IMG/VR virus record: IMGVR_UViG_2690316115_000023
Strand: one strand, 5' to 3'
DNA from: a virus
Lineage: Duplodnaviria > Heunggongvirae > Uroviricota > Caudoviricetes
Length of the DNA stretch: 4,274 nt
The notes under the pieces are model-generated. The model had not been told where the DNA came from and ran no database searches. It was given only the letters and a program-made list of their open reading frames with translations. This document shows positions 1,256 through 2,181 of this stretch, in pieces. The position numbers and the translations under genes are program-made. Position 1 is the first letter of the stretch; the number at the start of each line of letters is the position of its first letter.

Positions 1256-1624
1256 GTTGGCAGCCTCCTCAGTGTGGTTAAGATAACCGCCACCGGAAAC
1301 GCCAATTTCGCTGGTGGCGGACTGTACAGGGTTGGCGTAACCGGACACTGAAGAAACCGGCGCGGATTGCTCCGCCCCCGTACAGCCCACCATTGATAAG
1401 GTGTGACTATGCGGCACAAAAAAACACGCGGGGCGCGTGTTATGCGCTTCAGTTTTGCCCAGGACGCCAATCCCGGCACCCGTTTTATGAGGTGCGCGGG
1501 AATCATAGCTATTTTCGACACTGGCGATCAACTGGTTTTTTTCTCCGATATTCAGGGCCAGAAAACGCCACACAAAGGCCGTTTGTGTGTGTACAAGGTG
1601 TGGTATATGATTTACGGCAACCAT
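1064..1624 (-). CDS. Two-domain read-through ORF (186 aa): tandem paralogous domains, tentatively Icd-like (host cell division inhibitor-like), joined by a Gly/Ser-rich linker
   Basis: ATG at 1624 with AGGAG 5 nt upstream (the ORF-track extension to GTG 1723 has no SD). The N-domain (PHLVHTQTAFVWRF...TEAHNTRPACFFV) and C-domain (PTLVHSQTAFLWRF...EREARSRCPSGCVAVFAARIRQEV) align with several synonymous codon differences (CAC/CAT, ACG/ACC, CGT/CGC), indicating protein-level conservation. There is no in-frame stop between them. TAA stop at 1066..1064. Confidence 0.5.
   Translation of the reverse strand: MVAVNHIPHLVHTQTAFVWRFLALNIGEKNQLIASVENSYDSRAPHKTGAGIGVLGKTEAHNTRPACFFVPHSHTLSMVGCTGAEQSAPVSSVSGYANPVQSATSEIGVSGGGYLNHTEEAANMATIPTLVHSQTAFLWRFIIFGASEHQIIHVTAWTEREARSRCPSGCVAVFAARIRQEVCHVQ
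1418..1440 (-). terminator. Intragenic intrinsic-terminator-like hairpin inside the first Icd-like domain
   Basis: On the minus strand: ACACGCG-CCC-CGCGUGU (7-bp GC-rich stem, 3-nt loop) followed by U6. It lies within the codons for NTRPACFF. Confidence 0.4.
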
Positions 1625-1748: not shown

Positions 1749-1760
1749 AGGTGACCACTT
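1749..1760. promoter_or_regulatory. Palindromic operator-like site 2 (AGGTG-AC-CACTT)
   Basis: Near-perfect inverted repeat overlapping the SD and start codon of the RHH gene; 35 bp from site 1. Confidence 0.45.
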
Positions 1761-1992: not shown

Positions 1993-2181
1993 ATGCAGGA
2001 CAACACAATGACCGATAAAGAATTGACCAAAACATTATCACCGGCACGGAAAAGACGGCGCAGAAAGATAGAGCATGAATCAGAAAGATTCGCACCATGT
2101 GCTTTTGCCCTTGAGCAATTCCTTAAAGAGTATAGGGAAAAGCGCTCATTGCAGGTATGGCAACGAACTGAACCAGACTGA
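1993..2181 (+). CDS. Hypothetical small basic protein (62 aa; 57 aa from the ATG at 2008), possible partner of the RHH protein
   Basis: ORF 42 nt downstream of the RHH stop, followed about 95 nt later by the plus-strand terminator. Arg/Lys-rich (KRRRRK). There is no canonical SD: GAGGT lies 16 nt upstream, inside the loop of a 7-bp hairpin at 1960..1986. Rare codons are present. Weakly supported. Confidence 0.35.
   Translation: MQDNTMTDKELTKTLSPARKRRRRKIEHESERFAPCAFALEQFLKEYREKRSLQVWQRTEPD

Follow-up and report, generated by a model that had tools for sequence, protein, structure and literature searches.

A probable intrinsic-terminator hairpin at the 3′ end of an IsrK/seqA-like RNA, nested in a reading frame of a PICI-like satellite

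Why should a hairpin with the form of an intrinsic terminator lie in the middle of a long open reading frame? The question is raised by a 4,274-nucleotide (nt) stretch of DNA from a virus of the Caudoviricetes (IMG/VR record IMGVR_UViG_2690316115_000023; hereafter, 'the window' means this whole stretch). An earlier note, made from the sequence alone, had drawn attention to such a hairpin in what it took to be the first Icd-like domain of the first gene of an operon, and had proposed a conditional terminator that limits expression of the genes downstream unless antiterminated, reminiscent of termination-based immunity in P4-type satellites. Our analysis places the hairpin, on the minus strand at 1441–1418, at the 3′ end of an IsrK/seqA-like RNA, and establishes the anatomy of the surrounding cassette: its parts and their order, complementarities, conservation and reading frame. 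We consider it probable, at roughly 80%, that the hairpin serves as Rho-independent terminator to a leader RNA of the IsrK/seqA type, within an antisense-RNA immunity cassette of the P4/P1 type that is carried by a PICI/P4-like satellite. As judged by homology, the interpretation in the note appears largely correct.

Hairpin structure and conservation

The hairpin was characterized from its sequence, by a terminator scan, by Rfam models and by folding. On the minus strand, CACGCG (1439–1434) pairs with CGCGUG (1430–1425) around a CCC loop (1433–1431), and the stem can be extended by A1440–U1424 and A1441–U1423 to 1441–1434/1430–1423, giving six G/C-rich pairs and two A–U pairs closed by a 3-nt loop. 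The U-run is a U7 at 1424–1418, and the letters across the element read AACACGCG-CCC-CGCGUGUU, followed by further U. A terminator scan that included the minus strand lists the hairpin with 8 pairs, 5 of them G–C, a loop of 3 nt and then TTTTTGTG, in agreement with the description in the note of a hairpin with a U-run on the coding strand, within a long open frame. The codons over it, in the minus-strand frame 1064–1723, are AAC ACG CGC CCC GCG UGU UUU UUU, translated as NTRPACFF, which is also how they had been read before. Folded alone, the hairpin reaches −9.8 to −10.2 kcal/mol; a stem this short and weak fits a leaky terminator.

As a bare pattern, such a hairpin is not rare. Across the window the terminator scan lists 12 sites of this kind, compared with 5.1 ± 2.9 for shuffled sequences, and a 61-nt region around the hairpin folds no better than its shuffles (z = −0.64), figures that would suit a chance hairpin or a terminator serving the opposite strand. 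We nevertheless give this explanation next to no credence. The significance of the hairpin comes from homology, that is, from an Rfam isrK match with an E-value of 4.6e-13 and from its retention in all homologous cassettes examined; on the plus strand, moreover, A7 stands before the stem and TATGCGC, not a T-run, after it.

The Rfam match defines an IsrK/seqA-type leader RNA made of two 5′ hairpins and the terminator. The isrK model (RF01394) aligns to 1495–1419 (minus) over its full length (model positions 1–77 of 77) with 66 bits, above the gathering score of 50, and the hairpin corresponds to the terminal stem and U-tail of the model (positions 56–77). The genome of P4, scored with the same model, gives 60.8 bits. 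A second model, c4-a1b1 (RF03163), scores 21.2 bits against the window, below its gathering score of 46.7; P4 itself also falls slightly short with this model (44.1 bits), and the stretch that it matches is likewise claimed by isrK. A match to the Rfam model rnk_pseudo on the plus strand (1577–1697; 26 bits against a threshold of 55) was taken as chance.

The end of a promoter-like site lies 7 nt 5′ of the start of the IsrK match, inside the open reading frame. It comprises TTGATC, an 18-nt spacer and TATGAT (1531–1502, minus) and is sigma-70-like as a consensus match only, at 9 of 12 positions; a −10-like hexamer occurs at the equivalent place in aligned homologues. The site would be the counterpart of PLE in P4 and of PisrK in Gifsy-1.

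Conservation was assessed in cassettes found with a pattern from the 5′ part of isrK, which retrieved 120 viral contigs; among them, homology to the window was established for 54 cassettes, 41 of them unique. In the diverged members it starts exactly at 1495 and extends beyond the icd start. Every one of the 26 distinct 3′ parts, P4 included, has a hairpin of 5–8 bp (−7.5 to −11.5 kcal/mol) followed by T5–7, so that absence of the hairpin from homologous loci, which the note had named as evidence against its proposal, was not what we found. A pair count based on a MAFFT alignment (73.6% of cells paired) was blurred by register shifts, and we used alignment-free folding and an anchored count instead. 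Anchored on an invariant GCG, the 5-bp core is paired in 26/26 sequences, and its two outer positions vary as G–C/A–T/C–G and as A–T/C–G/G–T, that is, by compensatory changes in the stem.

Comparison of pairing across the same 26 sequences also reveals a lower helix, 1447–1443 with 1418–1414 (1414–1447, minus), that encloses the terminator and its U-run. It is present in 23 of the 26, including P4 (L123, about 8600–8650), with differing sequences. The energy that it adds is at least that of 95% of flank shuffles in 17/26 sequences, the window itself lying below that mark (0.115). The lower helix is outside the Rfam isrK model and can form in read-through RNA only; it may be a processing or stabilizing element.

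C4 RNA, its targets and the nested reading frame

A C4/CI-type antisense immunity RNA begins 21 nt 3′ of the hairpin. The Rfam C4 model (RF01695) matches 1397–1310 (minus) with 77.6 bits, against a gathering score of 45, and the RNA folds at −46.9 kcal/mol. Its two exposed segments, a′ (CUUCAGU, 1353–1347) and b′ (ACGCCAA, 1338–1332), each have two complementary targets. The first set lies in the IsrK-type RNA: b1 (UUGGCGU, 1470–1464), complementary to b′, lies in the loop of its second hairpin, and a1 (ACUGAAG, 1453–1447), complementary to the a′ loop, stands immediately 5′ of the terminator. The second set (1305–1264) comprises b2 (UUGGCGU, 1305–1299) and a2 (ACACUGAGGAGG, 1275–1264), and a2 includes the Shine–Dalgarno sequence GAGGAGG of an Icd/Kil-like gene; the duplex of a′ with a2 is worth −21.7 kcal/mol. 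In heteroimmune cassettes such as L085, L029 and L113, the a and b sites co-vary three ways (b1, b′ and b2, for instance). Such three-place co-variation is, at the level of sequence, the signature of a working antisense system. An antiterminator formed by the b1 loop and the 5′ side of the terminator was considered and ruled out, as the terminator is unchanged where b1 differs (L029 and L085).

The Icd/Kil-like gene (1255–1064, minus; 63 codons from ATG 1255) starts 55 nt past the 3′ end of C4. The NCBIfam Icd-like profile NF033153 gives 57 bits for its product, hereafter copy A, and 76 bits for Kil of P4. A BLASTP comparison of copy A with P4 Kil returned no match, and it is the family profile alone that links the pair.

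All of these elements are nested in one eta-like open reading frame of 186 codons (1624–1064, minus), recognized from the list of open frames, from Pfam and from frame conservation. It starts at ATG 1624 with AGGAG upstream, spans the internal promoter-like site, IsrK with its terminator, and C4, and has the Icd/Kil-like protein as its final part; the frame is open further, up to 1723 (219 codons, 1064–1723). We examined its conservation in 38 cassettes with an aligned start codon, over the roughly 81 codons that separate the ATG from the 5′ end of isrK. Read in phase with the Icd start, 34 of them have no stop in this interval, where shuffles predict about 1.5; in the two other phases, 1 and 8 cassettes have none. 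Most of the intervals measure 240, 243 or 246 nt. Furthermore, the open frames that contain the Ash stretch begin with an ATGA overlap on the preceding gene in L029, a triple array, and in L025, a lambdoid phage. Frame conservation and ATGA overlaps together show that the frame around the hairpin is maintained for translation, like that of P4 eta. The possibility that the 219-codon frame is a spurious read-through of two RNA genes was excluded by the precedent of P4 eta and by the frame-conservation test.

A conserved frame raises the question of whether the hairpin could be a by-product of coding constraint on a real Ash/Eta-type protein, with no transcription termination at all. The conserved frame across the hairpin is compatible with this, as is the existence of a Pfam family for the stretch, Phage_ASH (PF10554), which covers the IsrK–C4 region both in the window frame and in P4 Eta. 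However, the residues over the hairpin vary among homologues (NTRPACFF, DAPRVFF, YDAPASFL and HNRAHAVF), and all of these retain the hairpin and U-run, the pairing persisting through compensatory changes. In addition, the stretch scores as two structured RNA families, and an IsrK ending here has been detected in Salmonella (PMC4825925). We regard a coding by-product as very improbable. The earlier note had also held that the protein does not force the hairpin, and that statement stands on the variation among homologues.

The argument by which the note had reached it, namely that the paralogous position in copy A has no such structure, does not hold, as the positions compared are not paralogous. 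DNA paralogy between copy A and the supposed first Icd-like domain (copy B) is restricted to 1607–1562 against 1247–1202. The repeat, some 15 codons long, stops short of the RNA gene, the protein alignment of the two copies has petered out by residue 45 of copy B, at the position of the IsrK 5′ end, and the Icd-like profile matches the 186-residue product once only, at residues 137–180, which are copy A. The hairpin is accordingly not located in an Icd-like domain. What opens the eta-like frame is a 46-nt in-frame repeat of the Icd N-terminus (IPxLVHxQTAFxWRF), offset by 360 nt and equipped with its own AGGAG and ATG 1624; further remnants of the Icd N-terminus are apparently present in L033.

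Phage_ASH, over its whole length, equals the eta-frame translation of isrK/seqA and C4/CI (window 1507–1225, minus; residues 37–161 of P4 Eta), and 'ash family protein' calls made by PGAP, often flagged as pseudogenes, mark such RNA cassettes. In relatives of the window, PGAP names the locus 'ash family protein' (pseudogene), 'Icd-like protein' (pseudogene) or a 185-residue 'Icd-like protein', the last being the coding sequence called in a relative with 93% identity.

Proposed mechanism and relation to P4, Gifsy-1 and P1

The comparison with P4 that the note had offered as a reminiscence turns out to be literally correct. The P4 genome carries isrK at 8692–8615 and C4 at 8507–8420, followed by the Kil start, all inside the eta frame (214 codons). 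An isrK-type RNA, a terminator, a C4-type RNA and an Icd-like/Kil gene (about 64–65 residues in P4) thus occur in the same order and orientation as in the window, the whole cassette lies within one frame in phase with kil, 55 nt separate the C4 3′ end from the Kil/Icd ATG in both, and both have an alpA/vis homologue upstream and a lower helix around the terminator. The P4 terminator is read as DAPRVFF, its U-run being UUU UUU (Phe-Phe) as in the window. The two differ in the gap between terminator and C4, 21 nt in the window and 107 nt in P4, and in the 15-codon Icd repeat with its own Shine–Dalgarno sequence and ATG at the N-terminus of the window frame, unlike the P4 one. The alpA gene of the window lies about 700 nt away with small opposite-strand genes in between, again unlike P4. 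The a/b recognition sequences differ as well, so the immunity specificity should also differ.

Published work on these elements offers a guide to their function. PMC3632133 equates IsrK and C4 with the 'seqA and CI' RNAs of P4. As set out in PMC10111431, CI and seqA lie inside eta, transcripts from a constitutive internal promoter are soon terminated through CI–seqA interactions, occasional read-through leads to translation of Kil, and termination is prevented when an upstream promoter allows the whole of eta to be translated. Gram-negative PICIs are matched by both Rfam models, isrK and C4 (PMC10111431).

We infer the dynamics of the window cassette, namely termination, read-through, and the processing and effect of C4, from its P4 and Gifsy-1 homologues. 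Transcripts would start at about 1495 from the promoter-like site at 1531–1502, and many would end at the short hairpin and U7, leaving an RNA of about 75 nt that bears a1 and b1. Those that read through would contain the C4/CI RNA (1397–1310), which would be excised from the transcript. Its a′ and b′ segments would pair with a2 and b2 and mask the ribosome-binding site of the Icd/Kil-like gene, so that this gene and the replication genes behind it stay off. C4 may also pair with a1 and b1 beside the terminator, which in P4 raises the efficiency of termination and limits the synthesis of C4 itself. When transcription instead arrives from upstream, from the ATG 1624 frame or the alpA region, ribosomes in the eta-like frame would cross the terminator and the C4 targets; with ribosomes passing, the hairpin would not form and expression would escape immunity, as described for P4 eta. 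By analogy, then, the terminator is probably leaky and assisted by C4, and would be overridden by translation of upstream transcripts.

The conditional terminator of the note, limiting the genes downstream, survives in part. Termination at this position is described in the literature as leaky or dependent on antisense RNA (PMC4825925; PMC10111431), in keeping with the proposal. What the note had overlooked is a distinct small RNA, with a promoter-like site to itself, whose 3′ end the hairpin forms, as well as the C4 RNA behind it; the transcripts stopped would therefore be mainly those from the internal promoter, and not those of a 'first gene'. Its 'antitermination' is more likely to be ribosome transit through the eta-like frame, by analogy with P4, than the work of a dedicated antiterminator protein.

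The Gifsy-1 prophage of Salmonella suggests another role for the same hairpin. Its isrK–STnc1160/orf45–anrP locus supplied the founding RNA of the Rfam isrK family, and Gifsy-1 IsrK has been detected as an RNA and described as a structural homologue of P4 seqA (PMC4825925). A dedicated promoter drives it and a leaky Rho-independent terminator ends it, and the window carries predicted equivalents of both; transcripts that pass the terminator give rise to an mRNA and, further downstream, to a processed RNA that is complementary to IsrK (Hershko-Shalev et al. 2016, PMC4825925). On the model developed there, the hairpin would serve mainly to make a trans-acting activator RNA: short IsrK binds the read-through transcript or C4 region, opens the downstream ribosome-binding site and turns the operon on. 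Short IsrK supplied in trans raises anrP translation more than 100-fold and is required for induction of Gifsy-1 (PMC4825925). In the window, a1 and b1 of the IsrK-type RNA are complementary to a′ and b′ of C4, so IsrK could titrate C4 off a2 and b2. However, the layout downstream, with the Icd/Kil-like gene 55 nt past C4 and replication genes behind it, is that of P4 and not that of Gifsy-1 orf45–anrP; in Gifsy-1 the product is the antirepressor AnrP, acting on a Q-like antiterminator, whereas the window has an Icd/Kil-like gene and satellite replication genes. PMC3632133 and PMC10111431 assign P4 seqA a role in termination and lysogeny, and activation by short IsrK is reported for Gifsy-1 and is not known for P4-type cassettes. 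We therefore consider an activator RNA as the main purpose possible but rather unlikely here. It would be compatible with a terminator of a P4/P1-type immunity cassette, as the same terminator would do both jobs.

Within such an immunity cassette, the hairpin could also have a more modest task. The corresponding P4 element, t1, was reportedly described by Briani and colleagues in 2000 as a Rho-independent, CI-enhanced terminator between PLE and cI, and its deletion is said in the same work not to abolish lysogeny. If so, the hairpin may serve to adjust the level of C4 and not to gate the operon.

The immI region of P1 and P7 (c4–icd–ant) provides a third point of comparison. In accounts attributed to Citron and Schuster (1990) and to Riedel, Heinrich and colleagues, C4 RNA is said to be processed from the operon transcript, with a1/b1 upstream of c4 and a2/b2 over the icd ribosome-binding site; the cell-division inhibitor Icd is reportedly the first gene translated, the payload in P1 is the antirepressor Ant and polarity is said to be Rho-dependent. 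To our knowledge, the classic description of P1 includes neither a nested eta-type frame nor a terminator of the IsrK type separating a1/b1 from c4. The feature studied here has already been described in P4, in Gifsy-1 and in Rfam, and reported in PICIs; it adds no principle beyond those of P4, P1 and Gifsy-1.

Its main value is for annotation. Names such as 'Icd-like fusion protein' and 'ash family protein', and the related pseudogene calls, hide an RNA immunity switch, composed of IsrK/seqA RNA, terminator and C4/CI RNA, that is nested in a reading frame. Matches to the locus occur in about 1,960 of 5,426 complete Escherichia coli genomes and in 319 phage records. Once the switch is recognized, its a/b sequences should tell which satellites and prophages are mutually immune, and its position locates the point at which transcription of the satellite replication genes would be gated.

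Genomic setting and neighbouring elements

Close relatives of the window identify the element as a PICI-like satellite beside tRNA-Pro/yejM; the closest match spans 94% of the window and is 97.5% identical to it. Their gene order is integrase, alpA, cassette, DUF4222 and RepA-type helicase, with a small terminase gene in one relative. Among the neighbour genes of these relatives, alpha primase, sid, delta and psu, the neighbours in P4, were not found; DUF4222, RepA-type helicase, SSB and small terminase stand in their place. The element is hence PICI-like, and not a P4-like satellite in the strict sense. Two related PICIs, L126:3767-5027 and L127:3496-4708, have neither isrK nor C4 at Rfam gathering scores, which makes the RNA cassette an optional insert in that PICI family; their order is alpA, a frame of about 250–260 codons and an Icd-like gene.

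Upstream of the cassette, the list of open frames and protein comparison place an alpA homologue at 2536–2330 (minus), followed by an open frame at 2315–1650 (both within 1650–2536) that starts 15 nt past the alpA stop and ends 26 nt before ATG 1624. In the relatives L001, L125 and L033, one minus-strand frame runs uninterrupted between the alpA and icd stops, with 806 codons in L033:9148-11607 (−) and 413 in both L001:3565-4794 (−) and L125:1564-2807 (−); in dinucleotide shuffles, the longest open run averages about 125 codons and reaches at most 239. This frame runs antisense, wobble on wobble, to small plus-strand regulator genes and continues across IsrK and C4. L124, L002 and the window have two overlapping frames in its place (1650–2315 and 1064–1723 in the window), and because the alpA-side frame of the window stops at 1650, coupling to the eta-like frame needs re-initiation at 1624. 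Over window 1993–2181, protein scores compared to tell the coding strand are only slightly higher for the plus-strand frame (143/141/146) than for the minus-strand frame (107/128/114).

One could imagine that the terminator is one of several barriers neutralized by a selected 'ribosome escort' frame, in which translation matters and not the product encoded. We hold this to be a doubtful conjecture. If it were true, helper-induced alpA transcription would be accompanied by translation, coupled to it for more than 2 kb, that overcomes the hairpin and the C4 block alike, and the principle of P4 eta would extend to long-range, translation-based antitermination in Gram-negative PICIs.

Several further elements lie around the cassette. 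On the plus strand, a 15-bp hairpin (8 G–C) followed by T6 occupies 1653–1689, between the start of the eta-like frame and a plus-strand gene for a ribbon-helix-helix (RHH)-like protein; it would stop plus-strand transcripts antisense to the immunity cassette. Similarity to L001, a relative with 99% identity, breaks within this hairpin, at about 1660, and L033 appears to repeat the module. In the divergent region between the eta-like frame and the RHH-like gene (1759–1950), GGTGACCAC occurs in two exact copies, at 1715–1723 and 1750–1758 (plus), 35 nt apart, where about 0.02 copies are expected by chance. These copies are candidate operators for the small RHH-like protein.

Cassettes of this kind also occur in tandem. 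L029:9289-11266 (−) contains three 656-bp units, each with isrK and C4 within a frame of about 220 codons that ends as a Rha-type domain. An ATGA overlap links each frame to the next, and every unit has a/b recognition sequences of its own; the arrangement resembles a series of RNA immunity cassettes that are heteroimmune to one another. Two units each are present in L111, L085 and L013.
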